64,000 nucleotides of DNA from Candidatus Omnitrophota bacterium (GTDB lineage Bacteria; Omnitrophota; Gorgyraeia; Zapsychrales; JANLHA01), in the NCBI GenBank assembly GCA_020632535.1, contig JACKFJ010000001.1, positions 90,890-154,889 on the forward strand, given 5' to 3'. Every line of letters starts with the position of its first letter. Position 1 is the first letter of the stretch. The translations under genes were made by a program, and so were the position numbers. Below, piece after piece: positions 5,396-61,175 of this stretch. The notes below the pieces were generated by a model. It was not told the DNA's origin, made no database searches, and saw only the letters and a list, made by a program, of their open reading frames with translations.

Positions 5396-5461
5396 ATTAA
5401 AATCACGTAGTCCCGATAGTTTTACTATTGCGGGACAAGTGGGAGTCAGTCTCGGTAATTT
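5364..5461. repeat. 27-bp perfect direct repeat (5364-5390 and 5435-5461) flanking a 44-bp insert with a bulged hairpin (5410-5436)
   Basis: ACAAGTGGGAGTCAGTCTCGGTAATTT occurs twice. Copy 1 is the 3' end of the SIS gene. Both copies continue with a similar stop-codon context (tcgTAA / tagTGA). The hairpin gtcccgatagt-ttt-actatTGcgggac resembles one arm of repeat family B. Confidence 0.8.
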
Positions 5462-5509
5462 AGTGAAACAAGATCACGCAGATTATTTATCAATAACATA
5501 GGAGTTCGA

Positions 5510-6190
5510 ATGGCAATTTTTCTCGACACGAGCAATATTACTGAAATCCGAAAATATAATAAGATGGGCATTGTTTTTGGTGTGACCACGAATCCGACTA
5601 TCCTTCACAAAGAGGGCATCAAGGGTGGCATGGGTGGATTGAAAGCCGCGATTCAAGAAGTCACACAATTGCTTGCTCCACATCCTGTTTCAGTCGAGGT
5701 TACAACGAATGATCCTAAGGAAATGCTTAAACAAGCTAAGGAAATGGCTGGGTGGGGTGATAATATTGTTGTCAAGATCACTGTGCATGGGCCGAAAGGT
5801 GAGCTTGATAATATGGAGATTATTCATGAATTGGAAACAAAGCACAATATTCGTGTCAATGTCACGGCGATGATGAGCGCGCAGCAATGTTTTTTGGCCG
5901 CGTTGGCTGGTGCAAGCTATGTGTCGATTCTCTCGGGGCGTGTTAATAATATGGGGTATAACTCCATTGAAGAAATTAAAAAACTTCGTTTTCTTTTAGA
6001 TCGTTATCAATTAAAGAGCAAAATCATTGCGGCTTCCACACGGGAAATTTTAAATGTCACGGAATGGCTTTGTGCTGGCGCAGACATTGTTACGGTCGCT
6101 CCAAATTTTATTGAAGGGATGCTCGTTCATCCTTATACAAAAGAAACTGTGCAGATGTTTTTGAATGATGCGGCAAAAGCGGGACATTGA
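5510..6190 (+). CDS. Transaldolase-family class I aldolase (fructose-6-phosphate aldolase / TalC-like, short form)
   Basis: RBS AGGAG at 5500-5504. MAIFLDTSNITEI...GVTTNPTIL, NIVVKIT (Schiff-base Lys context), NVTAMMSAQQCFLAALAGASYVS. The 226-aa size matches Fsa/type-3B transaldolases. Confidence 0.85.
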   Translation: MAIFLDTSNITEIRKYNKMGIVFGVTTNPTILHKEGIKGGMGGLKAAIQEVTQLLAPHPVSVEVTTNDPKEMLKQAKEMAGWGDNIVVKITVHGPKGELDNMEIIHELETKHNIRVNVTAMMSAQQCFLAALAGASYVSILSGRVNNMGYNSIEEIKKLRFLLDRYQLKSKIIAASTREILNVTEWLCAGADIVTVAPNFIEGMLVHPYTKETVQMFLNDAAKAGH

Positions 6191-6197
6191 TATTTAC

Positions 6198-6299
6198 CAT
6201 TGCGAGGAACGAAGTGACGAAGCAATCCATAGTAGATTGCCGCGTCGTTCCTGCGGAACTCCTCGCAATGATAACAGCGCCCTTCGGGCTCGCAATGGG
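6198..6299. repeat. Palindromic repeat family A, copy 1 (composite, with two right ends)
   Basis: CATTGCGAGGA (6198-6208) is the reverse complement of TCCTCGCAATG (6260-6270). An inner stem pairs GCAATC with GATTGC. A second right end, gcgcccttcgggCTCGCAATGgg, lies at 6277-6299. It shares 28 identical bases with the copy at 61109. Confidence 0.85.
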
Positions 6300-6333: not shown

Positions 6334-7116
6334 ATGAACAATTTTCTTAAAACAAGACAATTGCTAAAGAAGAAGTTGCAGAATCGGGAAAAGATTTTTG
6401 GTTCATGGACGTCGTTGGCGCATCCGTCGATTACCGAAATTTTTACTCGTTCGGGAGTTGATTTTGTCGGCATTGATCTTGAGCATAGCACGATTAGTCA
6501 GGAACAGTCTCAACGTATCATTGCCACGGCGCAAGCCGGTGGTGTCGTGTGTTTGCCGCGCATTTCATCGCACAATCCCGAAATGGTTCGTCGTCTTTTA
6601 GATTCGGGGGCTGACGGGATGATTGTGCCGATGGTGCAAAATGCTGAGGATGTTAAAAAAATGATTGCTTGGGCTAAATATCCGCCGCTTGGTCGTCGTG
6701 GTTTTGGTGTTTCGCGCGCGCAAGGGTATGGCATGGATTTTACGGAGTACACCAAGACGTGGAATGCAAGTTCGATTATGATTGCCCAGATTGAATCGAT
6801 TGGCGCCGTGGAACGTATCGAAGAAATATTAGCTTTTAAGGAGTTAGATGGCGTGATGGTTGGGCCGTATGACATTTCCGGATCACTTGGCATCCCGGGA
6901 CAGATAGAGCATAAAAGTGTATTAGAAGCAGGTAAGCGTGTCATTGCGGCGTGCAAACGATATGGAAAAGCATGCGGGACACAAATTGTTGAGCCTAATG
7001 AACAGCGAATTAAGAAAGCGTTGGCTGCTGGTTTTACCTTTGTCATTTTGTCGTCAGATGTTTTCCTTTTATGGAAATGGGCGGATCAGATGAAAAGTTT
7101 AATCGCTCATAAATAA
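6334..7116 (+). CDS. HpcH/HpaI-family class II (pyruvate-dependent) aldolase
   Basis: FGSWTSLAHPSITEIFTRSGVDFVGIDLEHS, MVPMVQNAEDV, PLGRRGFG, AQIESIGAV, VGPYDISGSLG. This pattern is typical of 2-keto-3-deoxy-acid aldolases. Confidence 0.8.
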   Translation: MNNFLKTRQLLKKKLQNREKIFGSWTSLAHPSITEIFTRSGVDFVGIDLEHSTISQEQSQRIIATAQAGGVVCLPRISSHNPEMVRRLLDSGADGMIVPMVQNAEDVKKMIAWAKYPPLGRRGFGVSRAQGYGMDFTEYTKTWNASSIMIAQIESIGAVERIEEILAFKELDGVMVGPYDISGSLGIPGQIEHKSVLEAGKRVIAACKRYGKACGTQIVEPNEQRIKKALAAGFTFVILSSDVFLLWKWADQMKSLIAHK

Positions 7117-7791: not shown

Positions 7792-8571
7792 ATGTCCGAT
7801 TACTTACAAAAAACTTTTAACTTAACAGGCAAAACTGCTGTAGTTATTGGTGGGGCGGGTTTTCTTTGTAGTGAAATGGCAATTGGTTTAGCCAATGCGG
7901 GCGTGAATATCGCTGTTCTCGACAAGAACGAAGAAAAACTTAAACCCATTATTGAGAAAATAAAAGTCCTTGGGGTTAAAGCGTGTGGAATTTCGTTGGA
8001 TGTTACAAAAAAAGAAAATCTGTTGGCTGCGAAAGATGATGTTTTAAAAAGATTTGGTAGTGTCGATATTCTGATTAATGGCGCTGGAGTCAACGCTCCG
8101 ACGCCATTTTTTGATATTAAGGTTGAGGAATGGCAAGCTATTTTGGATTCGCATATTACCGCGACATTTTTAGCGTGTCAGGTTTTTGGTGAGGAGATGG
8201 TTAAAAGCAAAAGTGGTTCTATTATCAATATGTCATCAGCTTCTGCCGGGCCGCCTTTGTCGAAGGCATTTACCTATTCGATAGCAAAGGCTGGAATTCG
8301 CAATTTGACACAGAATTTAGGGCGTGAGTGGGCTAAGTCCAATGTGCGTGTCAATTGTCTTCGCCCGGGATTCTTTCCGACGGAGTGGAGTAAAAAACAT
8401 TTTATTGATGAAGCACGCAATGCCGCGATTTTAAATCATACGCCGATGGGGCGTTATGGCAAACCTGAGGAATTGGTTGGCGCGGTTTTATGGCTTTCGT
8501 CCGACGCGGCAACATTTGTCACCGGCGCGGAAATTACCATCGACGGCGGTTTTACATGTATGACAATTTAG
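7792..8571 (+). CDS. Short-chain dehydrogenase/reductase (SDR)
   Basis: TGKTAVVIGGAGFLC cofactor motif, NGAG, and catalytic S...YSIAK (YxxxK). Confidence 0.85.
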   Translation: MSDYLQKTFNLTGKTAVVIGGAGFLCSEMAIGLANAGVNIAVLDKNEEKLKPIIEKIKVLGVKACGISLDVTKKENLLAAKDDVLKRFGSVDILINGAGVNAPTPFFDIKVEEWQAILDSHITATFLACQVFGEEMVKSKSGSIINMSSASAGPPLSKAFTYSIAKAGIRNLTQNLGREWAKSNVRVNCLRPGFFPTEWSKKHFIDEARNAAILNHTPMGRYGKPEELVGAVLWLSSDAATFVTGAEITIDGGFTCMTI

Positions 8572-8573
8572 AC

Positions 8574-8608
8574 AGATTGCTTCGGCGCCCTGTGGGCTCC
8601 TCTCAATG
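8574..8608. repeat. Repeat family A, right-half fragment
   Basis: agattgcttcggcgccctgtgggctcctctcaatga aligns with the right arm of copy 1 (agattgccgcgtcgttcctgcggaactcctcgcaatga). Confidence 0.55.
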
Positions 8609-8618
8609 AAAGTAAAGT

Positions 8619-9377
8619 ATGAAAACAAAATTAAAAACAGTCATTATTACGGGTGGGACTAGAGGTATCGGTGCCGAAATTGCCAAAGTTTTTCACCGTG
8701 CTGGCATGTGCGTCATTATCGGTAGTCGTAATGATAGTGGTTTGGCCGATGAGCTTGATGAGCGCGTACGTTTTGTAAAAATGGATGTTCGTCGGGAAAG
8801 CGATCATAAGAAATTGATTTCCGCGGCCTTACAGTGGACTGGGCAAGTGGACGTATATATCAATTGCGCGGGGTTTTCTGCTTGGAAGCCGGTAGGTGAA
8901 GTTACGGAAAAGTTTTGGAATGATATGCTTGATACCAATTTGAAAGGTGTTTTTTGGGGTTGTAAAGCGGCCTCCGCAATTTTACCCAAGGGTGGCGTGA
9001 TAATTAATATTTCTAGTTTGGCCGGCAAACGCGGGAGCAGTAATAATTCAGTTTATTGCGCGTCTAAATTTGGTGTGACAGGTTTGACGCAAGCGCTCGC
9101 CAAGGAATTAGGAGCTCGTGGTATTCGCGTTGTGGGCGTTTGCCCTGTCTATGTAGAAACGCCCGGCGTTGTCCAAGCATTACAGGATAAGAATTCCCCG
9201 ACAAAGGGTAAGAATGTGAAAGCGTATTTACAAAAGTTTACAGCCGAACAAACGGCTTTGGGTGTTTTACCGACAGGTAAAAATATTGGTGAAACCTGTT
9301 TGTTCTTGGCATCTTCAGCTGCCGCGGCGATCACCGGCCAATCTTTGAATGTGGATTGTGGGGTTATGCCGCAATGA
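8619..9377 (+). CDS. Short-chain dehydrogenase/reductase (3-oxoacyl-ACP-reductase-like SDR)
   Basis: ITGGTRGIG, NCAG, S...YCASK (YxxxK), and C-terminal ITGQSLNVDCG. Confidence 0.85.
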   Translation: MKTKLKTVIITGGTRGIGAEIAKVFHRAGMCVIIGSRNDSGLADELDERVRFVKMDVRRESDHKKLISAALQWTGQVDVYINCAGFSAWKPVGEVTEKFWNDMLDTNLKGVFWGCKAASAILPKGGVIINISSLAGKRGSSNNSVYCASKFGVTGLTQALAKELGARGIRVVGVCPVYVETPGVVQALQDKNSPTKGKNVKAYLQKFTAEQTALGVLPTGKNIGETCLFLASSAAAAITGQSLNVDCGVMPQ

Positions 9378-20708: not shown

Positions 20709-20788
20709 CTGTCATTCCCGCAATCTCTTAGCGGGAATCCAAGATTTTGGAGAATGGATCCCCGATAGGAGCTTTCGGGGATGACAAT
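20709..20788. repeat. Palindromic repeat family B, copy 1
   Basis: Termini TGTCAT...ATGACA enclose two hairpins, ATTCCCGC-n9-GCGGGAAT and ATCCCCG-n13-CGGGGAT. It matches the copies at 43019-43131 (same orientation) and 43918-43986 (inverted). Confidence 0.85.
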
Positions 20789-20856
20789 AATTCGTGAAGA
20801 TAGGATCGCCAAAATCGCCCGAGACATAATATCATTCTGCCTAAGTGAAATATTTT

Positions 20857-36494: not shown

Positions 36495-39400
36495 GTGCTA
36501 AAGCCGTTTTATCGTAAAAGCGCTTATATTTTTCGGAAAATTGTCAGTATTTTGCTTTTGCTGACTTTTGGCCTGTCTATGGGCATTGCGCCCGCGGGGG
36601 CACAAATTTTGCCAAATTTGCCGACACCCGGGCAAATGCTTTGGCTGTCTCCCGTTTATGAACCGCCCGTGTTACGCGGCATGACTGTTCACCCCGAAAA
36701 TCCGCTTTTATTGGACTTTATCGTTGATCGCGGTCAGGACAAAATCAACAATGACCTTCTCAGAGACGAAAGCACCAAACTTATCAAATATTTTCTTACG
36801 TCGATGACTATTCCCGATAAGGACGCGTGGGTTAATCTTTCTCCTTATGAAAAAGACCGTATTATTCCTGATGCTCTCGGGCAAACCGAAATGGGTCGGC
36901 AAATGCTTGAGCAGGATTATATTCTCAAGCAGCTTTCGGCATCACTTACCAATCCCGACAAAGAACTTGGACAGAAATTTTGGAAAGAAGTCCGTGCCCG
37001 CGCGCAAAAGCATTTTGGCACTACCGAAATTCCGTTAAATACGTTTAGTAAAGTATGGATAGTTCCCGATGGCGCTACAGTTGTTGAAAAAGACGGCTTT
37101 GCATACATTACCGAAAGCAAGCTCAAAGTCATGCTTGATCAAGATTACGTTGCACAGAATATTAATCCCATTGCGAGCACCGAAGGTGCGCGGCAATCTC
37201 CGTCTATCGAGATTGCTTCGTCGTCTGTGACTCCTCGCAATGGTATAGAGAACGTTTCCACCGCCGTCTTCCGCGAAATGATCTTACCGCAATTAAACAA
37301 AGAAATTAACACCGGAAAGAATTTCAGCGCTACACGCCAAGTGTATCAATCGGTCATCCTTGCCGCGTGGTACAAAAAGGCATTAAAAGATTCTCTTTTG
37401 GGCCGCATCTATGCCGATAAATCAAAAGTTGAAGGCGTCGAGAGCGATGTTCAAGATATTAAACAAAAAGTTTATGATCAGTATTTAGAAGCGTTTAAAA
37501 AAGGTGTTTATAACGTTATTAAAGAAGAGGATGGTTTTGATGGCGATTTGATTCCGCGCAAATATTTTTCTGGTGGTATGGAATTAGGAATGAACCTAAA
37601 TTCCGATCAACTAAGAATTACACGTGGTTCTTCGGCCGTTTATCAGGTTGCAACTGAAATGAATACCGCGGGTGATGGTATCGTGGTTGTTAATGCTAAT
37701 TTGGCTGAAACAGAACGGGAAGCGGTGGAGATCAATGATAAGGCCGCGTCACGATGGGCGGCTAAAGAGATTCCGGTAGAATTCCGATTGTCTTTTAAAG
37801 ATGCCGTACGAAAGGTGAGTGGGCTTACTTTTATTTATCCGGAAGATTATAGGAGCTCCTATATTTTTTCAGTTGGAGAGAGTTTAGTCGACCAACAGAA
37901 ATTCACAAAAATCGCTGATCTTTTGGGGCAGGATAATCGCGGTCAGGTTATTGAAGAAACATATAAAGCGTTTGAGAGGCAGACACTTTCTGTTATTAAT
38001 GAAGTTGATCAACGTGACATTAAATCCGCCATCGGTTATTTTGTCGATGCAATCAAAGAATACAATACACCACAAGTTATTGAATCAGAGAGTGGATTGG
38101 TTTTTCAATTCCATCGGATTTCCGAATTATTTGAAAGTGACCGTGCTTATTTAATCCCGATTGTAGAGAAATTTGTTGCTCAGGAAGTTGCAAATCGTCC
38201 CGAACTTCAAAATAACCGCATTGTTGATGTCGAAAAAATGAAACCGGGAAGTCCCGGCACAAGTATTTATTTGATCAATTGGGGTGGACAAAAATATATT
38301 ATCAAGTCTCGTCCGATTAAGACTTTAGTAAAGTTCGGCGAATTTACAGAAAATAAATATTTAACGAATCAAGTAGAAATCTTAACGAAACTCAATGCGA
38401 ATGGTGGGAATGAACATATTGCAAAACTCGTGAGTTTTGGAACAGTAGCAGGCCAAGAATATCTTGTTACCAATTATTTACCGGGACAAAGTTTATTATC
38501 AAAAGTAAGAAGCGAAGGGCCACAATCCGTACAGAATACGGTCAAGATTGCCGTTGAGCTTGCTAAGGCGCTCGAATTTGTTCATGCGAAAGGAATTGTT
38601 TATCGTGATTTAGCTGCGAGAAATATTCAAGTTGGTCCGGACAATTTTGTTTATTTGTATGATTTTGATGTGTCGAGTGATGTTGATTACGACTGGACGA
38701 TCGACGCGTACAAGTTGCGCGATGTCACGAGTTTAACAGATTTTTCGGAAGAGGGTTTTGAGATTACTGCTCAGAGTTTTGATGTTCAACAGGATATTGC
38801 GAATATTGGCGCGGTATTATTTCGAACTGCCTCGGGAAAGTTGCTGATTAATATTTCTGATATCAGTGAGAGCACGATAGAAAATGCTGCTCTGCGTAAA
38901 ATTATTTTACGTTCTGTTGCTCCGCGCGCAAACCGTTATAAAAACGTTTCTGATATGTTAGCTGATTTAGAAACGTTACAAAAGTCTTTACCCGTCACGC
39001 AAGGTATCGAAGAGACAGCGCTTGGTGTGTCAAGCTCGACATTAAGTGACGAAACAATTGCGGCAACACATTCACGTATCGCCTCGAGTGGCGTTGGAAA
39101 GTCAGCGTCTGATCCTGCGAATTCAATCGTGTCAAAAATTGAAGAATTAGGCATTCGGCAAGAAATCCTGACTTTTATTCATAAACATCTTAGTTCCCTT
39201 GGTGAAATGAATAAAGATCAGATTCTTGCGATTTTAGCTGAAGCTCCATATGTTGGCAGGGATTGGCAGGCGATCTATCAAAATTCTCTGCGGGTGAATT
39301 CCGAGACAGCAAATCTTGATCTTGTTACATTATTGACCAAAGTTTATAAATTGCTAATTCTTAATGTTCTTGATAATTTTGGATCGATTGCGGCGCAGTT

Positions 39401-41744
39401 AGCGACCACGATTCAAAGTCCACAAGAACGCGAGGCTTTTTATGAATTTATTATTAAATTTGGTCGGGATATGGATGGTTTTCCTAATGAGCAGGTGTAC
39501 AACGTGATTAGGAAGCAGCCACTAATTGGCAGAGCTTTAGGAGAAAGTTTTGCGGGAGTTTCGGCTTTAGTTCCGTCAAATACAGTTGCCCAGTATTTCA
39601 AAATGACATTAAATACTGCCGCATTTCAGGTTGATCGGCAAGATTTCAAGAAAGATGGTCGAACAGGTTTTGTTGGTTTAACACCCAAGATTGAATATAC
39701 CGGTGAAGGATTGCGAAAATGGTTTAAACCCAATTCGACGGCATTGCCAAATAATATTGGTGATAATTTTAGGAGTGGAGTTGCTATTGAACCAAGTAAA
39801 ATTGTGTCAAATCGGGAAGTCGCATATTATCTTTGGCGGTATGCGCAATCTGTTCATGGCTTTAAACAGGTGCTTAAAGATTTTTTGGGCAATGATGTTC
39901 AAGATACTTATTTTTTGATTGATTTGCGCGGTGGACATTCTTTGGCTACGGCAGCCTATTTAAAAACATTGGGTGTTGATGTCGCTTATCAGCTGCCCAA
40001 GACAACCGCAAATCCTAAAAGTTTGGCAGTGTTGGCAGGGTTATTGCGTGTGCCATTTTCACAAGCAATCGATGCAAGGAAGAACAGTATTGCGACTGTT
40101 TTTGATAGTATGCGAACCGTGGAGTTGGGAGGATATGCTGTTGATTCGTCTATGGTACCAACAGCAGGATATTTACAGCGGCGGGGTATTAAACGGATTG
40201 TGCATATTAGTCAAAATGCAACCGGGGAGTATTTGAATCAAGGTTCAGGCTATGCTGATTTACGCGCGGTTAAAGAACAATATGAAAGGGCGGGAATAGA
40301 AAATCGATTTTTTGGTGTGGATGATGTCGCATTATATTCCAAGAGCAGTGAGGATCTTTTTGCTGACGATATTCATGTTTTTATTCATTCGATTTATGGT
40401 TATTTAGAAGCGGGCGCGTTTTTGGGTAAAAATTTCTTTGATTTGTCGTCCATAATGATTAACAATCGTCCGCCAACTCGTACTCAATGGGTTGACTTAT
40501 CTCAAAATCTTCCTAAGGATGTCGACCCCAAAAAATCAGCCTCAAGCAGTGTGATCGGTACAGGTCAAGAGGGTGATGACTTTGACCTTAGCGCGGCGGA
40601 TTCTTTAGCTAAATTAGTCAATGGTGAAATGACTGCAATGCAAAACGAGGCATATGAGATGGCCTTATTAGATTTTGTAAAACTCATGAAGGTTCAATTT
40701 ATTGATCGAAAGATTGATCAAATTGCGACTCCGGACGAAATCGCTGGTGTTTTTAAAGATGTTAGACGTTTTATAAGTTTATCAAAGGAAAGGTCACAGT
40801 CTTCACAATTACAATCGACTACTTTTGAGGAGCGTATCGATTCTTTTTTTACAGCATTGCAGTTAAGTCAACTTTCTTCGAATACAAATGCGCGAGGGAT
40901 CAAATTAGGAGAGTATGTGTGGGCGTCTCTTCGTACGGTCGCTGAACAATTAAATCCAACGTCTAAGAATTCGCGAGACGTTGAGAGTATTGCGTTACTT
41001 CCAGATGCGATTTACCGGGAATTTACAGGGAGATCTAAAAGCGATTTGTTAGATTCATTAATTGAATTTTACATTGCGCTATCTGACCCTTTATTGGTTG
41101 CTTCGAGTACGATAGCAGTTCAATACAATCGCAAAGCGGATCAAGTAAATCCCAGCTATGAAAGAAGTGCAAGCACTGCGGGGGAATTGGTTGAACGGAT
41201 TGAAGATATTCTTTCAACGACACGAAAAACAGCCGCTGATCTTAATCGTGCGTATACAGAACGAGATGCGTATGTTTTGCAGCAAGTTGCTGGATTAAGT
41301 GCGGGTAAGTTAGATGATGTGGTGAAACTGGCGCGTTTTAGGGACGCTCTTGATCGATATTTGATTGAGAGTAATGAGGATCATTTAAACGCATTAACAG
41401 GCGAAGGACTTTTGCGTTGGCTCAAAGCAAACGGCATTATCGATGGTCGTATTCGCAGAGATTTGGATACGCCGCCGGATTTAGAAGACACTATAGCGTC
41501 GAGTGCGACAAAGAGTTCGGACGCAACAAAGGGTGGTATCGACTTTGACCCCACACTTTTGAATTTGCAGATCAAGCGTGATGGTCGGGGTGTCGCATTG
41601 CCTTTGCCTCAGCAAGATCTCGAGCATATCAATATCAAAGGTTTTTATCCTGTTATCATCAATATTCAACCTTTGAATATTCAAACATTACCTATTCTTG
41701 GTTTTTTGAATAATCCTCCAGAAGTCGCCCTTTCCAAAGGGTAA
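36495..41744 (+). CDS. Giant (1749 aa) secreted or anchored multidomain protein with an embedded protein-kinase-like domain
   Basis: RBS AAGGAG (36482-36487) precedes GTG 36495. The N-terminal signal/anchor is IVSILLLLTFGLSMGIAPAGA|Q. The frame is uninterrupted for 5.25 kb and the kinase motifs are listed in the next feature. Most of the protein matches nothing I recognise. Confidence 0.6.
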   Translation: MLKPFYRKSAYIFRKIVSILLLLTFGLSMGIAPAGAQILPNLPTPGQMLWLSPVYEPPVLRGMTVHPENPLLLDFIVDRGQDKINNDLLRDESTKLIKYFLTSMTIPDKDAWVNLSPYEKDRIIPDALGQTEMGRQMLEQDYILKQLSASLTNPDKELGQKFWKEVRARAQKHFGTTEIPLNTFSKVWIVPDGATVVEKDGFAYITESKLKVMLDQDYVAQNINPIASTEGARQSPSIEIASSSVTPRNGIENVSTAVFREMILPQLNKEINTGKNFSATRQVYQSVILAAWYKKALKDSLLGRIYADKSKVEGVESDVQDIKQKVYDQYLEAFKKGVYNVIKEEDGFDGDLIPRKYFSGGMELGMNLNSDQLRITRGSSAVYQVATEMNTAGDGIVVVNANLAETEREAVEINDKAASRWAAKEIPVEFRLSFKDAVRKVSGLTFIYPEDYRSSYIFSVGESLVDQQKFTKIADLLGQDNRGQVIEETYKAFERQTLSVINEVDQRDIKSAIGYFVDAIKEYNTPQVIESESGLVFQFHRISELFESDRAYLIPIVEKFVAQEVANRPELQNNRIVDVEKMKPGSPGTSIYLINWGGQKYIIKSRPIKTLVKFGEFTENKYLTNQVEILTKLNANGGNEHIAKLVSFGTVAGQEYLVTNYLPGQSLLSKVRSEGPQSVQNTVKIAVELAKALEFVHAKGIVYRDLAARNIQVGPDNFVYLYDFDVSSDVDYDWTIDAYKLRDVTSLTDFSEEGFEITAQSFDVQQDIANIGAVLFRTASGKLLINISDISESTIENAALRKIILRSVAPRANRYKNVSDMLADLETLQKSLPVTQGIEETALGVSSSTLSDETIAATHSRIASSGVGKSASDPANSIVSKIEELGIRQEILTFIHKHLSSLGEMNKDQILAILAEAPYVGRDWQAIYQNSLRVNSETANLDLVTLLTKVYKLLILNVLDNFGSIAAQLATTIQSPQEREAFYEFIIKFGRDMDGFPNEQVYNVIRKQPLIGRALGESFAGVSALVPSNTVAQYFKMTLNTAAFQVDRQDFKKDGRTGFVGLTPKIEYTGEGLRKWFKPNSTALPNNIGDNFRSGVAIEPSKIVSNREVAYYLWRYAQSVHGFKQVLKDFLGNDVQDTYFLIDLRGGHSLATAAYLKTLGVDVAYQLPKTTANPKSLAVLAGLLRVPFSQAIDARKNSIATVFDSMRTVELGGYAVDSSMVPTAGYLQRRGIKRIVHISQNATGEYLNQGSGYADLRAVKEQYERAGIENRFFGVDDVALYSKSSEDLFADDIHVFIHSIYGYLEAGAFLGKNFFDLSSIMINNRPPTRTQWVDLSQNLPKDVDPKKSASSSVIGTGQEGDDFDLSAADSLAKLVNGEMTAMQNEAYEMALLDFVKLMKVQFIDRKIDQIATPDEIAGVFKDVRRFISLSKERSQSSQLQSTTFEERIDSFFTALQLSQLSSNTNARGIKLGEYVWASLRTVAEQLNPTSKNSRDVESIALLPDAIYREFTGRSKSDLLDSLIEFYIALSDPLLVASSTIAVQYNRKADQVNPSYERSASTAGELVERIEDILSTTRKTAADLNRAYTERDAYVLQQVAGLSAGKLDDVVKLARFRDALDRYLIESNEDHLNALTGEGLLRWLKANGIIDGRIRRDLDTPPDLEDTIASSATKSSDATKGGIDFDPTLLNLQIKRDGRGVALPLPQQDLEHINIKGFYPVIINIQPLNIQTLPILGFLNNPPEVALSKG
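37169..37243. repeat. Repeat family A copy embedded in-frame in the giant gene
   Basis: cattgcgagcaccgaaggtgcgcggcaatc...gagattgcttcgtcgtctgtgactcctcgcaatgg aligns end to end with copy 1 (6198-6270), with the same CATTGCGAG/CTCGCAATG termini and GCAATC/GATTGC inner stem. It is 75 bp (25 codons) and is translated as IASTEGARQSPSIEIASSSVTPRNG. Confidence 0.65.
38220..38900 (+). other. Protein-kinase-like domain inside the giant protein (approximate bounds)
   Basis: KYIIK (Lys604, 38304-38306), an alphaC-like NQVEILTKL, the catalytic loop YRDLAARN (38601-38624) and DFD in place of DFG (38661-38669). Confidence 0.6.
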
Positions 41745-41765
41745 TATAACCCCACTGATCCAAGA

Positions 41766-41793
41766 TTGACAAAACCATCTTCTTACGTATAAT
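41766..41793 (+). promoter_or_regulatory. Consensus sigma70-type promoter for pgk-tpiA-secG
   Basis: Perfect TTGACA (41766-41771), a 16-nt spacer and a perfect TATAAT (41788-41793), about 40 nt upstream of ATG 41834. AAAGGA RBS. Confidence 0.6.
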
Positions 41794-41833
41794 ATTGGAA
41801 TTCTTTGAGCCGTAAACTGTAAAGGACGCTGCT

Positions 41834-43018
41834 ATGAATAAACTCACTGTTAAAGATTTAGATCTTAAGGGTAAAAAGGTTCTTATCCGCGTGGACTTCA
41901 ATGTCCCGCTTGATGATAAGTTAAATATTACTGATGATCGCCGGATTACGGAAGCTGTCGCGACCATAGACTATGTTTTAAAACAAGGCGCGGCAAAAGT
42001 TATTTTGATGAGCCATTTAGGTCGTCCCGAAGGCCAAGTTGTTGAAAATCAGAGACTTGCGCCGGTAGGGAAACGTCTTGAAAAGTTGTTGAGTCAAAAA
42101 GTCCTCTGCACTAAAGATTGTGTTGGACCGGAAGTCAAAAAAGCGATTGAATTAAGCCAAGAAAAAGTTATTCTCCTCGAAAACTTACGTTTCCATAAAG
42201 CTGAAACCAAAAATGATCCCGAATTTGCCAAACAGCTCGCGTCGCTCGCTGATGTTTTTGTCAATGACGCGTTTGGCACGTCACATCGCGCGCATGCTTC
42301 CACGCACGGAGTAACACAGTATTTAAAATCCGCGGCGGGTTTTCTCCTCGAGAAAGAAATCAATTATTTAGGCAAAGCCATCGATAATCCAGCTCGTCCA
42401 TTTGTTATTATTTTAGGTGGTGCCAAGGTTTCGGATAAAATCGCTCTTATTGAAAACATGTTGCCTAAGGTCAATGCCATTATCATTGGCGGCGGAATGG
42501 CGTACACATTTTTAAAATCGCAGGGGAAAGAAATAGGAACTTCACTTCTTGAAGCAGACAAAGTTAGTGTTGCTAAAGATCTTTTGGAAAAAGCTCAGAA
42601 AGCCAATGTTAAGATTGAGTTGTCACGGGATTTTGTGGTTGTCAAAGATTTTAAAAATCCTGCAGAACTTAAGATTGTCAAAGACATTGAGCCCGGTTGG
42701 TCAGGTGTTGATATTGGACCAGAAACACGAAAAGCGTTCAAAGCGGTTTTATCAACAGCTAAGACCATTGTTTGGAACGGGCCGGTTGGGGTTTTTGAAG
42801 TTAAGGAATATTCTGATGGAACCCGCGAACTTGCGGAGTATGTTTCTAGCCTCAAAGGCGTGACGAGCATCGTCGGTGGCGGAGATACTGCCGCGGCTGT
42901 CGCGAAATTTAACTGCGAAGCCGGTATGACACATATTTCAACGGGTGGTGGTGCTTCGCTTGAACTATTAGAGGGGAAAGTTCTTCCGGGCATTGCCGCA
43001 TTAACTGACAAAAAATAG
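41834..43018 (+). CDS. pgk: Phosphoglycerate kinase
   Basis: KVLIRVDFNVP, MSHLGRP, LENLRFH, FGTSHRAH, GGGDT, STGGGASLE. Confidence 0.95.
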   Translation: MNKLTVKDLDLKGKKVLIRVDFNVPLDDKLNITDDRRITEAVATIDYVLKQGAAKVILMSHLGRPEGQVVENQRLAPVGKRLEKLLSQKVLCTKDCVGPEVKKAIELSQEKVILLENLRFHKAETKNDPEFAKQLASLADVFVNDAFGTSHRAHASTHGVTQYLKSAAGFLLEKEINYLGKAIDNPARPFVIILGGAKVSDKIALIENMLPKVNAIIIGGGMAYTFLKSQGKEIGTSLLEADKVSVAKDLLEKAQKANVKIELSRDFVVVKDFKNPAELKIVKDIEPGWSGVDIGPETRKAFKAVLSTAKTIVWNGPVGVFEVKEYSDGTRELAEYVSSLKGVTSIVGGGDTAAAVAKFNCEAGMTHISTGGGASLELLEGKVLPGIAALTDKK

Positions 43019-43131
43019 CTGTCATTCATATGTTTTTATTTTATGTCATTCTCGTAATCTTTTAGCGGGAATCTAATAATGGATCCCCGATAAAAGATTA
43101 CGGGTATGACAATAGCGTTGGGGATGACAAT
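43019..43131. repeat. Repeat family B, copy 2 (composite, with extra terminal fragments)
   Basis: The core at 43043-43113, tgtcattctcgtaatcttttagcgggaatctaataatggatccccgataaaagattacgggtatgacaat, matches copy 1. An extra left-end-like fragment (ctgtcattcatatgtttttat) lies at 43019 and a duplicated right end (agcgttggggatgacaat) at 43114-43131. Confidence 0.8.
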
Positions 43132-43149
43132 AACATAAGGAAATAATTT

Positions 43150-43914
43150 ATGCGAAAAATCATTATTGCTGGTAATTGGAAAATGTATAAGACCTCATTT
43201 GAGGCTGTTGAGCTTGTCAATGAACTCAAAAGAACATTAGGTGATATGAGCGAAGTGGATGTTGTGGTGTGTCCACCGTTTACCGCGCTCGTGGAAGTCA
43301 AAGACGTCATTAGTGAAAGCAATATTGGTTTGGGAGCACAAAATATATATTGGGAAGAATTCGGCGCATTTACCGGTGAGGTGTCCGCCCCAATGCTGAC
43401 AGCGATTGGTGTGCAATATGTTATTATTGGCCATTCCGAGCGCCGCCAATTTTTTGGTGAAACCGATGCTACTGTAAATAAAAAGATCAAAGCCGCGTTA
43501 AAGCATGCTCTTATTCCTATTGTTTGTGTTGGTGAAGTGCTAGCGGAAAGAGAAGCAGGCAAAACTTTTGCGGTGATTGAGAAACAATTAGAAGGTTCTC
43601 TTGCGGGATTTACTGCCGAAGAAATTGAAAACGTGGTTTTGGCTTATGAACCAGTCTGGGCAATCGGCACGGGTAAAACCGCGACTCCAGTTCAGGCGCA
43701 GGAAGTGCATAAATTTATCCGTGATTGGTTGACCAAGAAATTTGATGCCGCTATCGCCAACAAAGTTCGCATTCAATACGGCGGCAGTGTCAAGCCGGAG
43801 AATACCGCGGAGTTGATTGGACAGCCTGATATTGATGGCGCATTAGTCGGCGGTGCAAGTTTAAAGAGCGAGACATTTAGTCAGATTGTAAAAAACTGTT
43901 TGGCTTTAAAATAA
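43150..43914 (+). CDS. tpiA: Triosephosphate isomerase
   Basis: IIAGNWKM, IIGHSERR, YEPVWAIGTG, YGGSV. Confidence 0.95.
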   Translation: MRKIIIAGNWKMYKTSFEAVELVNELKRTLGDMSEVDVVVCPPFTALVEVKDVISESNIGLGAQNIYWEEFGAFTGEVSAPMLTAIGVQYVIIGHSERRQFFGETDATVNKKIKAALKHALIPIVCVGEVLAEREAGKTFAVIEKQLEGSLAGFTAEEIENVVLAYEPVWAIGTGKTATPVQAQEVHKFIRDWLTKKFDAAIANKVRIQYGGSVKPENTAELIGQPDIDGALVGGASLKSETFSQIVKNCLALK

Positions 43915-43917
43915 TTT

Positions 43918-43986
43918 TGTCATCCCCGAATGTTTTTATCGGGGAATCACTAATAGATTCCCGCTAAAAGATTGCGGGAATGACAC
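43918..43986. repeat. Repeat family B, copy 3 (inverted orientation)
   Basis: ttgtcatccccgaatgtttttatcggggaatcactaatagattcccgctaaaagattgcgggaatgacac. Its reverse complement aligns with copies 1 and 2. Confidence 0.85.
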
Positions 43987-44001
43987 TTGGAAAGGGAAAT
44001 T

Positions 44002-55109: not shown

Positions 55110-57047
55110 TTAGCGGTGTTGTAATTCTGCTTTTAAATTCTGCAATTCGGTTTCCATTTGATTGAGATTTTCACCTTGGTGTGCGATATCTTTTTTCTGC
55201 TGTTTTAAGACGGCTGTCAAAACCGCGGTCACATTCATAGGATCAATGCTTTTACGTCCTTGTGCGGCAACAAGATCAGGAACATCCTCAGCGATAAATC
55301 CTACATGGCGTTCATTTTTGTCAGCTTTATAATTATAGGTTACAGGTCGTAATTTGAGAGTTGTATCAATAGCGTCTTGTGTATCGAGCGTCTTGATATT
55401 ATCTTTATATGCTCGGCTGGAAGGGGTTGTAAAAATACCACCGGTCGTTAAGTACGCGTTGTTCGCTTGAGCGCCGAAATGTAGAGGATGAGTCGGCGTT
55501 GGTTGTCCAATACCGACGTAACCATTGTTCTTGACGAAGAAAATATCTCCTGCGGCGGCCGCGCTGGTTGATGTCACGGCAAGATAGTCATCCGCCCCAT
55601 TACTCGTGATACTTAAAGATGCAGTTGGACTTACTTCTCGAATACTGAGTTTAGCTCTTGCAAGTATAAAACTATCGGCTGACGAAACCGTGAGGTAAGA
55701 GTCGAAGTAGTTAAAAACAAATGTGCGATGGGAGGAGTTATCTAAAACCAGATCATCCCCACCTAAGACGGTGCTATAATTTCCATTATTTATGTTTCCC
55801 ACACTGCTAGCGATTACGGAGTAATTTCCACTTATATTATTACTTGCTTGACCTCCGATGACTGACGACATCCCTGTGACTATGTTATTGCTTCCACCTG
55901 ATACAGTCGCATAATTACCGCTGGTAGTGTTACGGCCACCGCCGGTTATAGCTGACCAATCTCCGCTAGCATTATGGTACATACCGCTAACAGTGGAATA
56001 GGCGCCACTTGCACTTCCAGTATTGCCTCTATAAGAATACCCAGTATACGTGGAGTGTGATCCACTTGCTGTCATTAGTGTTGCGCCAGTAATAGTGGCA
56101 AAATTTCCACTTGCAATATTCGAACCTAGACCCGATATGACTGTATAATTACCGGAGCTGAGATTATTTGATCCTCCGGTAATGGTTGCATAATTCCCCG
56201 ATCCTTGAATGATATTACTTGTTCCACTGAGTGCTTGGCCAACTCCATCGGCGGTGTTTGACGAGCCGGCAAAAATTGTATTATAAGTTCCGGAGGCGGT
56301 GTTATTACTAAAGCCAGAAATGACCGAATACTGTCCAGAAGCCGCATTATTTTGACCACCGGTAATCGTGACATAAGAATTGGTGGCGCTATTGGTATTG
56401 CCGCCCGCGATAGTTGCGTAATTGCCTGTTAAGACATTGCTTTGTCCCGAGACCGTGGTTCCGGTATTTTGCGCGGTATTATTTTTACCAAAGGCGACCG
56501 AATAATCTCCTGTTGTGGCATCATTTGTTATTCCCGTACTATCGACAATCGCGCGAAAAGAACCCTTGCGAGGATACCAAATCAGACGGGAATTATCTTG
56601 TCCGATACGGCTACCAGTTAGCGATGTGAGAGTAGCTCCTGCCGCAAATGTTCCTGTGGCTAAAATGCCACCATCATTTTCTAGCGTTAATTTAAAAGAT
56701 GGAGTCGATGTCCCAATACCTAAATAAATGAGGGGATTCGTCGTCGTTGTAGTTGGGTATACATAATTACCAGTTTGTGTCCATGTATTATTCATTGAAC
56801 CCCAAGTCCCGATACCACCTATGTTGTGGCAATAAAATAGTTTACCTGTAGACTCTTCGACGACGAGAGTCCCAATAGTACAAGGTGTCGGTAAAGAAGA
56901 TTGCGGGATTAAAGTCATGCGATCATAGGCGCCTTGTGGAGCGGCGTAATAGGTTTTTAAAATGAGATTGCCACCCCAGCTTATGGACGTAAAAGTCAAT
57001 GGCAGAAGAAGGGTGATAAATATAATTTTAAAATTTCGCTTTAGCAT
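55110..57047 (-). CDS. Fibre-like secreted protein, paralogue 3 (Gly/Asn/Ser 15-residue repeats plus a C-terminal Peptidase-S74-like intramolecular chaperone module)
   Basis: ATG 57047 has AGGTG 6 nt upstream and sits 1 nt after the paralogue-2 stop; the track start is GTG 57056. Signal peptide, two conserved Cys, YLGIGTSTPSFKLTLENDGG, RLIWYPRKGSFRA and repeats such as ASGQYSVISGFSNNT. The C-terminal module SSRAYKDNI...RPVTYNYK...GFIAEDVP is at 55113-55421. Confidence 0.7.
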   Translation of the reverse strand: MLKRNFKIIFITLLLPLTFTSISWGGNLILKTYYAAPQGAYDRMTLIPQSSLPTPCTIGTLVVEESTGKLFYCHNIGGIGTWGSMNNTWTQTGNYVYPTTTTTNPLIYLGIGTSTPSFKLTLENDGGILATGTFAAGATLTSLTGSRIGQDNSRLIWYPRKGSFRAIVDSTGITNDATTGDYSVAFGKNNTAQNTGTTVSGQSNVLTGNYATIAGGNTNSATNSYVTITGGQNNAASGQYSVISGFSNNTASGTYNTIFAGSSNTADGVGQALSGTSNIIQGSGNYATITGGSNNLSSGNYTVISGLGSNIASGNFATITGATLMTASGSHSTYTGYSYRGNTGSASGAYSTVSGMYHNASGDWSAITGGGRNTTSGNYATVSGGSNNIVTGMSSVIGGQASNNISGNYSVIASSVGNINNGNYSTVLGGDDLVLDNSSHRTFVFNYFDSYLTVSSADSFILARAKLSIREVSPTASLSITSNGADDYLAVTSTSAAAAGDIFFVKNNGYVGIGQPTPTHPLHFGAQANNAYLTTGGIFTTPSSRAYKDNIKTLDTQDAIDTTLKLRPVTYNYKADKNERHVGFIAEDVPDLVAAQGRKSIDPMNVTAVLTAVLKQQKKDIAHQGENLNQMETELQNLKAELQHR

Positions 57048-57048
57048 A

Positions 57049-59034
57049 TTATTCACCTAACATTCTTTTAAGCTCACGGACATTATTACGAATTTTCTCA
57101 ATTTGCCGACTTTGCTTTTTGATTTCTTGCTCTTGGTCTTGGGCAACTTTGGTTAAGACGGCAATAAAATCCAAAGTATTTAAAGAGGCGCGATCATTCA
57201 TTGCGACAATTTGTGGGACATCTTCGGCAATAAACCCGATATTCTTTTGTTTTGGAGTCAATTTATAATTAAATGTGACAGGATTCAGTTGATCTAAGGC
57301 CGCTTGTGAATCTGAAGAGGAGAGAAGTTGAATGTTTTCTTTGTATTTTTTACTTGATGTACTCGTCCAGACTCCACCGCCTGTTAAGTAGGCATTGTTG
57401 GCATTCCCGAATTGCATGGCATATGTAGACACGGTTGGGGTGGGTTTATTGACACCGATATAGCCATTATTTTTTATAAGGAAAACGTCACCTGAAGCCG
57501 TACGCTTGATATTTATATAATCATCAGTTGTTCCGATGGCATTGATTTCTAACACTCCTGCTGGAGTTAAATCACGAACACCAACTTTGGGATTCCATGG
57601 GTTGCTGGAAATTGTTCCGGAGGCAATAATGAAGGCATTGGGAGTTGAAATGGATACAGGTGTATCAGAATACCCCCAAACAAAAGTATTATCAGCCGCT
57701 GAAGTCAATTGCATATTTTTCCCTCCCGCCCATGAATATTCACCCGCTGCGATATTGTCAGTTCCTCCCAAGATCATTGAATAATCACCGCTGGCGGTAT
57801 TTCTTTCCCCTCCGCCAACGACAGAATAATTGCCACTGGCGGTATTTGCCCAACCGCCGCCGATTGTGCTGGCAGTTCCTGATGCAATATTATCACGCCC
57901 GCCGGTGATTACGCTGTAGTCGCCTGTAGCTAAATTGTTTTCGCCGCCAGAAACACGTGAATAGGCGCCAGTAATAACTCCCAAGGTGTCAAGGCCCGCC
58001 GTATTATTTTTGCCGCCGCCGATACTGGCAAAGGGAGCGAGAGCAGTATTGTTTTCACCTCCGGAAATGACAATATAATCGTTGCGAGCTTTATTATTTA
58101 AACCACCGCCAATAACGGCATATCCTGTCGCGGCACCAGCACCGATATAATCGATGAGATTATCCTTGCCACCATTAATGTTGGAGTAAGGTGTGGAAAC
58201 GATATTGTTTTCACCGCCACTGATTGTGGAATATATCGCTGTCGCCTGATTATTGTGGCCTCCTAATACTGTCGCGAAATCTGCTGAGGCAATGTTTAAA
58301 TGTCCTCCGGGTATTGTTGCATGGTGACCGCTGGCGGTATTGCTTAATCCGCCGGTTACAGCAGAATAATTGCCACTGGCGGTATTGCTTTGACCGCCGA
58401 TAACATTAGCATATTGTCCACTGGCAATATTGCTATCTCCACCAGCAACGTTGGAATAAGAGCCGCTTGCGGTTGAGTTTTTTCCCATGGCTGTGGAATA
58501 ATCTCCGATATTAGCATTGTTCCATTGGATACCATCAACATGCCCTGCGCGAAAAGCAGATTTTCGTGGATACCAGATCAACCGGCTTTGTGGTGCGCTT
58601 AGAGTATCCTGTAAAATTAGGCCACTGCCGAAAGTTCCTTGTGCGATCATTCCTGCGTCATTAATGAGGCTTAATTTAAACTCTGGAGTGATTGTCCCAA
58701 TCCCAACGTTGAGGTTGGTGTTGGTAGGTGTGTCGGTTAAATAAATATTATCTCCGATTTGTGTCCAAATATCCGTCACAGGACCCCACGTTCCAGCGCC
58801 TGTTACGCTGCGGCAATATTGGAAGTTTCCAGCATTATTGGCATATATGCTCCCGATAACGCAAGGATTTGTAAGGTCAGCACTCCTTGGGAGTAAGCGT
58901 ATCAAATCATACTCACCTGAGCGCACAGGATAATATGTTTGTATCGATACCCCCGGGACTGCTTCCGCATGGTTTGAATAAACCATGAGCAAAGATAAGG
59001 ATAAAATGACAATATGTTTATAAAAAGATCTCAA
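57049..59034 (-). CDS. Fibre-like secreted protein, paralogue 2
   Basis: TTG start at 59034 with GGAG 7 nt upstream. Signal peptide ...SNHAEA|VPG, NVGIGTITPEFKLSLINDAG, RLIWYPRKSAFRAG and very regular 15-mers (SGQYANVIGGQSNTA, SGNYSAVTGGLSNTA). The C-terminal module SSKKYKENI...NPVTFNYK...GFIAEDVP is at 57052-57357. Confidence 0.7.
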   Translation of the reverse strand: MRSFYKHIVILSLSLLMVYSNHAEAVPGVSIQTYYPVRSGEYDLIRLLPRSADLTNPCVIGSIYANNAGNFQYCRSVTGAGTWGPVTDIWTQIGDNIYLTDTPTNTNLNVGIGTITPEFKLSLINDAGMIAQGTFGSGLILQDTLSAPQSRLIWYPRKSAFRAGHVDGIQWNNANIGDYSTAMGKNSTASGSYSNVAGGDSNIASGQYANVIGGQSNTASGNYSAVTGGLSNTASGHHATIPGGHLNIASADFATVLGGHNNQATAIYSTISGGENNIVSTPYSNINGGKDNLIDYIGAGAATGYAVIGGGLNNKARNDYIVISGGENNTALAPFASIGGGKNNTAGLDTLGVITGAYSRVSGGENNLATGDYSVITGGRDNIASGTASTIGGGWANTASGNYSVVGGGERNTASGDYSMILGGTDNIAAGEYSWAGGKNMQLTSAADNTFVWGYSDTPVSISTPNAFIIASGTISSNPWNPKVGVRDLTPAGVLEINAIGTTDDYINIKRTASGDVFLIKNNGYIGVNKPTPTVSTYAMQFGNANNAYLTGGGVWTSTSSKKYKENIQLLSSSDSQAALDQLNPVTFNYKLTPKQKNIGFIAEDVPQIVAMNDRASLNTLDFIAVLTKVAQDQEQEIKKQSRQIEKIRNNVRELKRMLGE

Positions 59035-59038
59035 GATA

Positions 59039-60967
59039 TTACTCCATGTGTTTTAAATTTTTGACTCTGCTTTTTAATTCATTAACTTCAGATAGTAAGG
59101 CGTCGCTTTCTTCTTTTTGTTTTTTGAGAGTGTCTTGCTGATGCGCAATGACCTTAGTCAGAACCGCGGCAATATCCATTGGGGCAAGGCCTTTTCGGTC
59201 TTGACTTGCAATCAAATCAGGGGCATCTTCGGAAATAAATCCTAAATACTCTTGATCTTTCTCGTTGATATAGTTATAGCGAATAGGAACTAGTTTTGAA
59301 AACGCATCCATAGCTTTCTTTAATTGGAGGTCAGCAATGTTTTCTTTGTAAATGCGACTGGATGCCGGCATAAAATTGCCGCTGGCATCTACATAGGCGC
59401 CGCTACTAAAATGCATGGGGTAGGAGGGATTTGTTTGTCCTACGCCAATACGACCGTTATTTTTAATTGTCAAAACATTGCCAGCGGCAGCTACGGTTGT
59501 GCTAGTTAAATTCAGATAATCATCGGTTGACGCATTTCCATTGATTTCCAGTAGGGCTGCAGGTGTTGTATCGCGTATTCCCATTCGGCCTGAGTAAATG
59601 TTAAATGTATCAGCCGTTGTAATGGGTGCAATAGGTGTTGCGGAGTGACCCCAAACAAATGTATTCCCGGCACCAAACCCCACAGACATGTTTTGTCCAG
59701 CTACCGTGCATGTACTTGCATTAATTGCATTGAAGGCCCCTCCGATAATACTAGAAAAAGGGTTGCTCAAAGTGTTTGTAAAACCTCCCGTAATCGTTGA
59801 GGAGAAGCTGGTCATCGTGTTATTGCTTCCTCCTTGGATCGTGGAATGCGAACCAAATCCGTCGATAGTATTATTAAGTCCGCCATTTATAACAGAATTA
59901 TAGCCGCTTGCTTGATTAGTACTTCCGCCTGATACTTGGGCGTAGAAATAATAGCCAAGGTTATTTGAATATCCCCCTGCAATTGTTCCTACGGGTACAG
60001 AAGAAACAATAGAATTGAGGTATCCACCAGAAATCGTAGTTTCTAAAGATCCTGTACTGTTTTGCCGTCCACCAAAAATTGCAGTGGAGTGAGTCGCCGA
60101 TGCTGTATTGTCGCGTCCTCCAGAAATGATGCCTATTGATCCAGCATTACTATACCCACCTGACACTATTCCATTGGTAGATGTTGTGTTATTTTCACCG
60201 CCGCCAATTGTTGAGCCAGGGCCGGCGCTATTACTTTTCCCAGCCACGGTACTATTGATGCCCGTTGTACTGTTGGATTCTCCACCAAGGATTTGACAGT
60301 ATGAAAAAGTACAGCTATTGTTTAATCCACCGGCAATCATGTTATATCCAATGCCTCCAACGGCGGTTGTGTTGCCGTAACCTCCCCAGACGGCATCAGC
60401 GATGCTTCCAGATCTGCTGCCGTATCCCATCGCCATTGAATATGTTCCGATATTGGTATCATCCCATTCCGCGGCAGGGACATATCCCGCACGAAAAGCG
60501 CCTTTGGCAGGATACCAAATCAATCTTGTTCCTGCGCCCGAAATTGGTAGGCTCGCGGAAGAACCGCTGACATTATCAGCAAGAATGCCGCCGTCGTTTG
60601 CCAGTGTCAATTTAAACATTGGTGTGGATGTACCGATACCGACAAGTTTGTTTTCGGGAGTCGAAGTGTCAGTCAGATAAAGGTCATTGGCGTTGAGTGT
60701 CCAAACGCCGGGAAATGGTACAAAAGTTGACAATGGATTGACTCCCGGAGGGATGCAGTAATAAGGAATACTGTTGTCACTAGAGTTAGCGTAGAGTGTT
60801 CCGACAGTGCAGTTGCTGGCCGTCAAGGCCGTTTGAGGTGTTAATTTGATACTATTATAGTTTCCTGAGGGAGCAGGGTAGTAGGAAGTTAAATTAAACT
60901 GCTCAGCGTATGCGGGAGAGCAAAGAATGATAATTCCAATGAATGTGAGTAAGAGCTTTTTTTGCAT
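59039..60967 (-). CDS. Fibre-like secreted protein, paralogue 1
   Basis: ATG at 60967. Signal peptide ...CSPAYA|EQ, LVGIGTSTPMFKLTLANDGG, RLIWYPAKGAFRAG and GG..N repeats. The C-terminal module SSRIYKENI...VPIRYNYI...GFISEDAP is at 59042-59362, followed by a heptad tail. Confidence 0.7.
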   Translation of the reverse strand: MQKKLLLTFIGIIILCSPAYAEQFNLTSYYPAPSGNYNSIKLTPQTALTASNCTVGTLYANSSDNSIPYYCIPPGVNPLSTFVPFPGVWTLNANDLYLTDTSTPENKLVGIGTSTPMFKLTLANDGGILADNVSGSSASLPISGAGTRLIWYPAKGAFRAGYVPAAEWDDTNIGTYSMAMGYGSRSGSIADAVWGGYGNTTAVGGIGYNMIAGGLNNSCTFSYCQILGGESNSTTGINSTVAGKSNSAGPGSTIGGGENNTTSTNGIVSGGYSNAGSIGIISGGRDNTASATHSTAIFGGRQNSTGSLETTISGGYLNSIVSSVPVGTIAGGYSNNLGYYFYAQVSGGSTNQASGYNSVINGGLNNTIDGFGSHSTIQGGSNNTMTSFSSTITGGFTNTLSNPFSSIIGGAFNAINASTCTVAGQNMSVGFGAGNTFVWGHSATPIAPITTADTFNIYSGRMGIRDTTPAALLEINGNASTDDYLNLTSTTVAAAGNVLTIKNNGRIGVGQTNPSYPMHFSSGAYVDASGNFMPASSRIYKENIADLQLKKAMDAFSKLVPIRYNYINEKDQEYLGFISEDAPDLIASQDRKGLAPMDIAAVLTKVIAHQQDTLKKQKEESDALLSEVNELKSRVKNLKHME

Positions 60968-61108
60968 AAAATCAACCTTTAAGAGATAAAGAAAATCTCA
61001 AGGTTACAGAACAGCAACGAGATTAATACATCAAATATACGTTGTAATCTGTGTTTAAGCAATGGTAGAAGTGTATTTATTGTGAAAGCGGTTTCTTTGC
61101 AAAAGACT

Positions 61109-61175
61109 CATTGCGAGGAACGAAGTGACGAAGCAAACGAGAATAGATTGTCGCGCCCTTCGGGTTCGCAATGGG
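61109..61175. repeat. Palindromic repeat family A, copy 2 (short form)
   Basis: cattgcgaggaacgaagtgacgaagcaa is identical to 6198-6225. The right end, cgcgcccttcgggttcgcaatggg, matches the second right end of copy 1 (6277-6299). Confidence 0.85.

Follow-up and report, generated by a model that had tools for sequence, protein, structure and literature searches.

Palindromic repeats inserted in-frame in genes are known chiefly from Rickettsia, with reports from only a few other bacterial species. The locus described here raises the question of what kind of repeat lies within a large protein-coding gene of an Omnitrophota bacterium, how it came to be there and whether it is tolerated or used. 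We analyzed a stretch of 64,000 nucleotides (the window) together with loci from related genomes. The initial annotation had proposed that the segment at 37169-37243 is an in-frame copy of an intergenic repeat, here called family A, comparable to the Rickettsia palindromic elements, and had called the host gene giant. The latter description is too strong, since the 1749-residue protein is large but not giant.

A Palindromic Repeat Within the Coding Sequence

The host gene and the parts of the element embedded in it are the following:

36495..41744, plus strand: host gene, 1749 aa, comprising an N-terminal module (about residues 1-365) conserved in Omnitrophota, a Ser/Thr kinase domain at 608-825 and a motif conserved at the C terminus
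37169..37243, no strand assigned: in-frame family A palindromic doublet in the coding sequence (alignment, fold, GC)
37165..37200, plus strand: left REP-like unit, consisting of CCATTGCGAG, a CACC-GAA-GGTG mini-hairpin and then GCGCGGCAATC (covariance model R1, 37.5 bits, E 4e-6)
37209..37246, minus strand: right REP-like unit, inverted (covariance model R1, 38.6 bits, E 2e-6)

The 75 nt at 37169-37243 read CATTGCGAGCACCGAAGGTGCGCGGCAATCTCCGTCTATCGAGATTGCTTCGTCGTCTGTGACTCCTCGCAATGG. They are bounded by the termini CATTGCGAG and CTCGCAATG and contain the inner sequences GCAATC and GATTGC; all four motifs recur in the intergenic copy at 6198-6270, as had been claimed. The identity of these two copies, previously put at about 70%, amounts to 59 of 81 columns (73%) in a global alignment, with the same count in either orientation because the element is palindromic. 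A second intergenic copy, 61109-61173, aligned globally in reverse orientation, agrees at 56 of 75 positions (75%). The best alignment score of 29 compares with a mean of -3.6 (sd 4.0) and a maximum of 15 over 1000 dinucleotide shuffles (z ~8), and the other 75-mers of the window (n = 1710) reach a top score of 9. The similarity thus exceeds chance, and a chance match to the intergenic repeats is ruled out by both controls. In addition, CATTGCGAG occurs six times in the window versus 0.66 expected.

The coding copy folds as well as the intergenic copies, with an RNA fold of -35.4 kcal/mol (z -4.96) next to -35.1 for the intergenic copy. Its GC content is 57% versus 41% for the host gene, and four of its six reading frames are open. 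In the host frame it is translated as IASTEGARQSPSIEIASSSVTPRNG (residues 226-250; codon register at nucleotides 37170-37244), in line with the earlier statement that its length is a multiple of three and leaves the open reading frame undisturbed. The repeat itself was correctly recognized at 37169-37243, but its extent has to be corrected, as the inverted repeat reaches from 37165 to 37246.

Architecture and Window Copies of Family A

The family A element is an inverted doublet of two REP-like units of 30-38 nt each. In each unit, the ends YCATTGCGAG and CGAAGCAATC flank a variable hairpin, which gives the layout (T)GTCATTGCGAG, variable hairpin, CGAAGCAATC(T). An alignment of 20 units from the window and related genomes was used to build covariance model R1. 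The outer pair ATTGC/GCAAT is invariant in all units. The centers differ in sequence among copies and keep their self-complementarity: stems of at least 6 bp are present in 26% of 80 distinct centers versus 4% after shuffling. Units are 24-45 nt long; the outer stem of 5 bp is followed by an internal loop and then by an inner hairpin of 3-8 bp that varies among copies, and the commonest short form among the matches listed is CATTGCGAGCGAAGCGAAGCAATC. Model R1 finds four family A loci in the window, namely the coding copy and the following intergenic ones, the first accompanied by a partial extra end:

6194..6274, no strand assigned: intergenic doublet between ORFs 5510-6190 and 6334-7116 (R1, 43.0 and 36.6 bits)
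6277-6297: partial extra right end after the 6194-6274 doublet (R1)
8573..8612, minus strand: intergenic singlet between ORFs 7792-8571 and 8619-9377 (R1, 25.7 bits, E 0.005)
61105..61173, no strand assigned: intergenic doublet downstream of the minus-strand ORF 59039-60967 (R1, 38.9 bits)

The intergenic copies measure 73, 65 and 40 nt and the coding copy 75 nt. The terminal repeats are 10-13 nt long, and the copy at 6198 has a 3' tail ending GCAATCCA. None of the four window copies is flanked by a direct target-site duplication. The triplets ACC, CCC, ACT, TAT or TTT stand before CATTGCGAG in the window, where a TGTC tag is degenerate; copies elsewhere in Omnitrophota begin with GTC, mostly TGTC, with a TGTC-AT head. 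A T precedes GTC in 54% of the IMG/VR units listed, GTC itself being fixed in the scan pattern. An Rfam scan of the whole window returned no family at threshold, a literature text search with family A sequence strings gave primers only and nothing relevant, and a literature search on palindromic repeats in Omnitrophica likewise found nothing relevant. We could not find a name for this repeat family in Rfam or in the searchable literature.

The window also holds doublets of a second repeat family:

20710..20789, no strand assigned: second-family doublet TGTCATTCCCGC..GCGGGAATCCA, with a layout as in CGTC-1 / RPE-6 / dRS3
43044-43114 and 43917-43988: further second-family doublets

The latter two lie in inverted orientation with arms of 69 nt that are 84% complementary, and bracket exactly one gene (43150-43914) with a triosephosphate isomerase Pfam domain. 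Other repeats of the window comprise a 47-nt direct repeat (5364-5410 and 5435-5481; 87% identical, 71-nt spacing), whose first copy shares bases with the 3' end of ORF 4775-5395 and whose second copy falls in the spacer ahead of ORF 5510-6190. On the minus strand, 55110-60967 contains three adjacent paralogous ORFs of ~640-660 aa with internal repeats in common; the repeat families D1 and D2 lie at 56551, 58547 and 60489, and at 57763 to 58444.

The Host Protein and Its Loop

The kinase domain is the sole match of the host protein in NCBIfam and Pfam. Exact matches to this protein or to the upstream gene were not on record among public assemblies. More than 1300 homologues were found for its N-terminal 500 residues, and those with a named source are nearly all labeled Candidatus Omnitrophota or Omnitrophica; the host is judged to be Omnitrophota from these homologues. 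They share the N-terminal module of ~365 residues (N-module), fused to varied C-terminal domains, and genomes hold several N-module paralogues. The middle domains of the family vary (kinase, HD, methyltransferase, GGDEF, ankyrin), and many members have a C-terminal motif in common (GGIDFDP..LNLQIKRDG.GV.LP...D......I.G..PVI..I.P); homologues of this architecture include P0002, P0004, P0007, P0014, P0018, P0024, P0030, P0104 and P0118. The N-module has no Pfam, NCBIfam or PDB match, and Foldseek of its model against the PDB gave no match at E <= 0.001. Together, the N-module and the C-terminal motif look like an uncharacterized targeting or anchoring architecture of Omnitrophota.

An AlphaFold2 model of residues 1-500, based on a 32-sequence alignment, has a mean pLDDT of 63. 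In this model residues 226-245 have a pLDDT below 50 and lie between helices 215-223 and 247-273, while 10-residue blocks from residue 251 onward average 82-93. The insert falls on the sole low-confidence stretch between two confident helices of the N-module. The predicted structure thus agrees with the initial proposal that the 25 residues form a loop in the N-terminal module, and is consistent with a loop that is exposed and disordered.

The Segment Is an Indel

For comparison, 80 loci were fetched from reference genomes. The three closest orthologues (L004, L005 and L006) show 75-79% identity across the module. In each of them the flanks KVMLD.DY and S..VFRE.ILP are retained and the 25 residues are missing; the loops range in length from 20 to 55 residues and have unrelated sequences. 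Because the segment is absent from the three closest orthologues and its flanks are conserved, it is an indel, as had been anticipated. In L004 and L006, the same loop contains remnants of other palindromes.

An exact empty-site allele was not found, the nearest insert-free relatives being only 75-79% identical, and the insertion boundaries are therefore not fixed. Metagenomes were scanned for orthologues closer than these and for an empty site; the best identity was 67%, and one fragment with 87% stops ahead of the loop. A public short-read contig of the same organism from Logan (SRR12358676; locus L003) spans window positions 37173-43981 and matches at both ends. Its start is four bases into the family A element and its far end falls within a second-family copy, which fits both repeats being repeated, or polymorphic for presence and absence, in the sample.

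One may ask whether the 25 residues are ancestral coding sequence that resembles the repeat by chance or through gene fragments. An intact reading frame is all that speaks for this explanation. The orthologue comparison did not turn up the same residues in any of the three closest relatives, the alignment score lies ~8 standard deviations above the shuffles with no other 75-mer of the window close, and the intergenic copies are complete palindromic units present in many genomes and viral contigs. We regard an ancestral origin as barely credible.

Spread of Family A Across Genomes

The R1 scan covered 1.22 Mb, comprising the window and 82 Omnitrophota loci, and found 36 units:

N-module genes: 20 units
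intergenic: about 13 units
other coding sequence: about 3 units, including in-frame singlets in PriA and LeuRS

This corresponds to ~23 coding and ~13 intergenic units in the window and the 82 loci, the kind of count that had been suggested at the outset for the full genome. The PriA and LeuRS singlets are at 9251-9280 of L019 and 3656-3688 of L054 (leucyl-tRNA synthetase), respectively; earlier reports likewise place intragenic REPs in genes for replication, repair and tRNA synthetases. Of the N-module units, 11 of 20 occupy the loop of the insert, across seven genes, and the remaining ones are near residues 81, 305-321 and 345. Further doublets are found in L002, L038 and L046. The N-module gene of L076 carries three singlets (2764-2793, 3208-3237 and 3484-3513) in different loops, near residues 81, 229 and 321. 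Two of the singlets are identical and the third deviates at one base, and the one in the middle loop is directly adjoined by a VIPAKAGI-type unit. A pattern scan of IMG/VR yielded at least 120 contigs with a family A unit, and family A is therefore widespread in environmental DNA.

The initial proposal that family A is, or was, mobile and can colonize coding sequence is supported, as both types of site are occupied in many genomes. Transposition is the presumed mechanism. No transposase lies beside the intergenic copies, whose neighbors are HSP20, MotA/ExbB, Cpn10, ComEC and Wzy, and a regular-expression screen of 2.3 Mb for HUH/Y1 motifs, a weak test, gave 0 candidates.

The carriers are scattered in a neighbor-joining ordering of the module, and homologues read the repeat in at least two frames (VIAS.EAKQS and SLRG..EAIS), which argues for several independent acquisitions. 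Some copies were inherited by descent, since the flanks of the site-II singlets are identical between L002 and L054. Such descent is one argument for an alternative route, in which a paralogue or orthologue already carrying the element passed on the loop through recombination or gene conversion, without transposition into this gene. The several N-module paralogues per genome would supply donors, and a same-clade locus, L001, carries a family A doublet at the corresponding position, read in the same frame. Yet the window copy does not match L001 and L002 in its central hairpins and spacer, and its head CCATTGCGAG matches the degenerate heads of the intergenic copies in the window, not the TGTC of other genomes. 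This likeness speaks for a source close at hand, among the intergenic copies of the window, and a converted loop appears very unlikely to us.

Several Palindromic Repeat Families in the Same Loop

Family A is not the only repeat in this loop. Among 114 protein homologues, 30 have loop peptides typical of palindromic repeats, and at least four repeat families occur in the same loop of the N-module family: family A, a VIPAKAGI-encoding family, a VILSEAKDL..PQND-encoding family and GTAG-like families encoding VGAGLKPAPT-type peptides. VIPAKAGI is encoded in the N-module loop of several homologues, and the matching repeat of the window is TGTCATTCCCGC..GCGGGAATCCA. In L007 and P0001, the peptide pair GRSTLEK..VQPPTSNV is found in two loops (before residue 180 and in the main loop), which suggests yet another palindromic family.

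Hairpins are dense at the nucleotide level. The fold z is below -2 in 35 of 74 loops and below -3 in 23 of 74 (31%). The latter threshold is passed by 14% of intergenic windows (Fisher p = 0.001 for the loop versus intergenic DNA), by 17 of 873 flanking 100-nt windows of the module (2%), by 2% in the C-terminal parts of the same genes and by 1.3% of other coding windows. About half of the homologues, including a whole subfamily with a conserved 33-residue loop, have no hairpin in the loop (z near 0 or positive), and the hairpin is therefore not required.

Selection for the hairpin itself has to be weighed against this background. The loop might hold a functional palindrome, acting as a translational pause once the first folded subdomain is made, in mRNA processing or stability, or as a recombination site, for which any repeat family could be recruited. 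The excess of strong folds over intergenic, coding and flanking DNA, the convergence of at least four unrelated families on one loop and the -35 kcal/mol hairpin retained by the window copy would all be explained in this way. It is at odds with the hairpin-free half of the homologues and the 33-residue-loop subfamily, with the decay of the copy in L001 (right arm down to 21 bits), and with the family A units in ordinary intergenic DNA, PriA and LeuRS; moreover, a promoter and terminator scan around the coding element gave no signal at the element. Hairpin selection is thus improbable in our judgment.

We read the hairpin excess as the result of tolerance, slower loss in a coding context and possibly an attraction of new repeats to existing ones. 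A hairpin density above that of intergenic DNA is not obviously predicted by pure neutral tolerance. A somewhat bolder reading, which we put forward as speculative and on balance unlikely, is that the KVMLEEDY-REIILPEIEKEVN loop may be a landing pad or retention site that preferentially captures or keeps several palindrome families above the intergenic density, and thereby diversifies the length and sequence of an exposed loop across a large family of paralogues.

Relation to Known Palindromic Elements

The closest relatives of family A are sought among the CGTC-tagged REPs. Their terminal tag is CGTC, frequently altered to TGTC or CCTC; the stem opens with A-T pairs, and the tail is short and in most cases reads CCA (Di Nocera et al., 2013; PMC3733652). 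They are mostly intergenic, but singles and dimers are also found in-frame within genes; dimers are frequent, intragenic dimers encode 20-30 residues, and no dedicated transposase is known (PMC3733652). CGTC-1 corresponds to RPE-6 of R. conorii and dRS3 of Neisseria, and CGTC-4 to RPE-4; VIPAKAGI and SFPRKRES are intragenic CGTC-1 peptides of R. conorii (PMC3733652 and its supplement). In related genomes, family A copies have a TGTC-AT head that resembles this tag; in the window the head is degenerate. Family A shares with the group a stem that starts with A-T after the tag (ATTGC pairs with GCAAT in all units), the short tail, the inverted dimers and the occurrence of both intergenic and intragenic units. 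On the other hand, the CGTC/TGTC REPs have an 8-9 bp stem and a 4-5 nt loop, in place of which family A combines an outer stem of 5 bp with an inner hairpin that varies. Furthermore, the peptides VIAS.EAKQS and EIASS..PRND are absent from the intragenic list of PMC3733652, and the host phylum Omnitrophota is outside the survey of that study. The second family of the window resembles CGTC-1 in the layout TGTCATTCCCGC..GCGGGAATCCA and in the homologue peptide VIPAKAGI.

Long RPEs such as RPE-1, as summarized in PMC10969869 and PMC3733652 from Ogata et al. (2000, 2002), are ~100-150 bp long, encode a conserved peptide and are described from Rickettsia only. The principle is the same, as these palindromes lie in-frame in functional genes and add peptides where the fold permits, but family A measures 75 bp and consists of two short units, which sets it apart from RPE-1 as described there. 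REPINs have a GTAG head and RAYT transposases and are almost exclusively extragenic (Bertels and Rainey, 2011; PMC3116915). They likewise join two inverted REP units and a short spacer into one long hairpin, with singlets as remnants; family A lacks the GTAG head, and screening 2.3 Mb of sampled DNA turned up no RAYT. Bacterial MITEs are small, non-autonomous and bounded by terminal inverted repeats, and sometimes produce in-frame fusions (PMC10969869). Family A has the same small size, non-autonomous character and terminal inverted repeats, but is palindromic throughout with no unique core, shows no visible target-site duplication at the four window copies and has no identified parent insertion sequence. 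An assignment to REPIN/RAYT was rejected on the head and on the lack of a RAYT in the 2.3 Mb sampled, and one to MITEs on the lack of a target-site duplication at the window copies; membership in the long RPEs appears improbable given the length and the two-unit build.

The comparison with Rickettsia palindromic elements made in the initial annotation has become closer still through the TGTC-AT head and the VIPAKAGI peptide of the second family. Family A resembles the CGTC/TGTC-tagged REP superfamily, which includes RPE-4 and RPE-6, and probably belongs to it or is closely allied. We file it as a new family-level member that works like the RPE and intragenic REP insertions.

Origin of the Coding Copy

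Given the established identity of the repeat, its status as an indel, its location in a loop and its spread over intergenic and coding sites, we propose that the segment is very probably a non-autonomous, REP-like selfish element that inserted into a permissive loop, most likely with neutral or nearly neutral effect. Such elements would multiply within genomes and mostly settle in intergenic spacers, presumably mobilized in trans by a hairpin-recognizing transposase. The coding copy would have landed in, or recombined into, the permissive hypervariable loop of the N-module of what may be a large secreted or membrane-anchored kinase-containing protein. It survived, as we see it, because its length of 75 nt is a multiple of three, it has no stop in the host frame and its peptide is hydrophilic; the predicted residues are rich in Ser, Ala, Thr, Glu, Arg, Pro and Gly. 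On this view the element would be selfish DNA, neutral or nearly so, and would make a disordered loop longer.

This case extends in-frame palindromic repeats to the uncultivated phylum Omnitrophota. Such repeats create apparent novelty in protein loops and seed spurious ORFs, and they break short-read assemblies, as seems to be the case for the Logan contig that ends at window position 37173, four bases into the element. If the loop hotspot is real, the N-module family would offer a natural system to ask whether palindromes are simply tolerated or are used for protein diversification.
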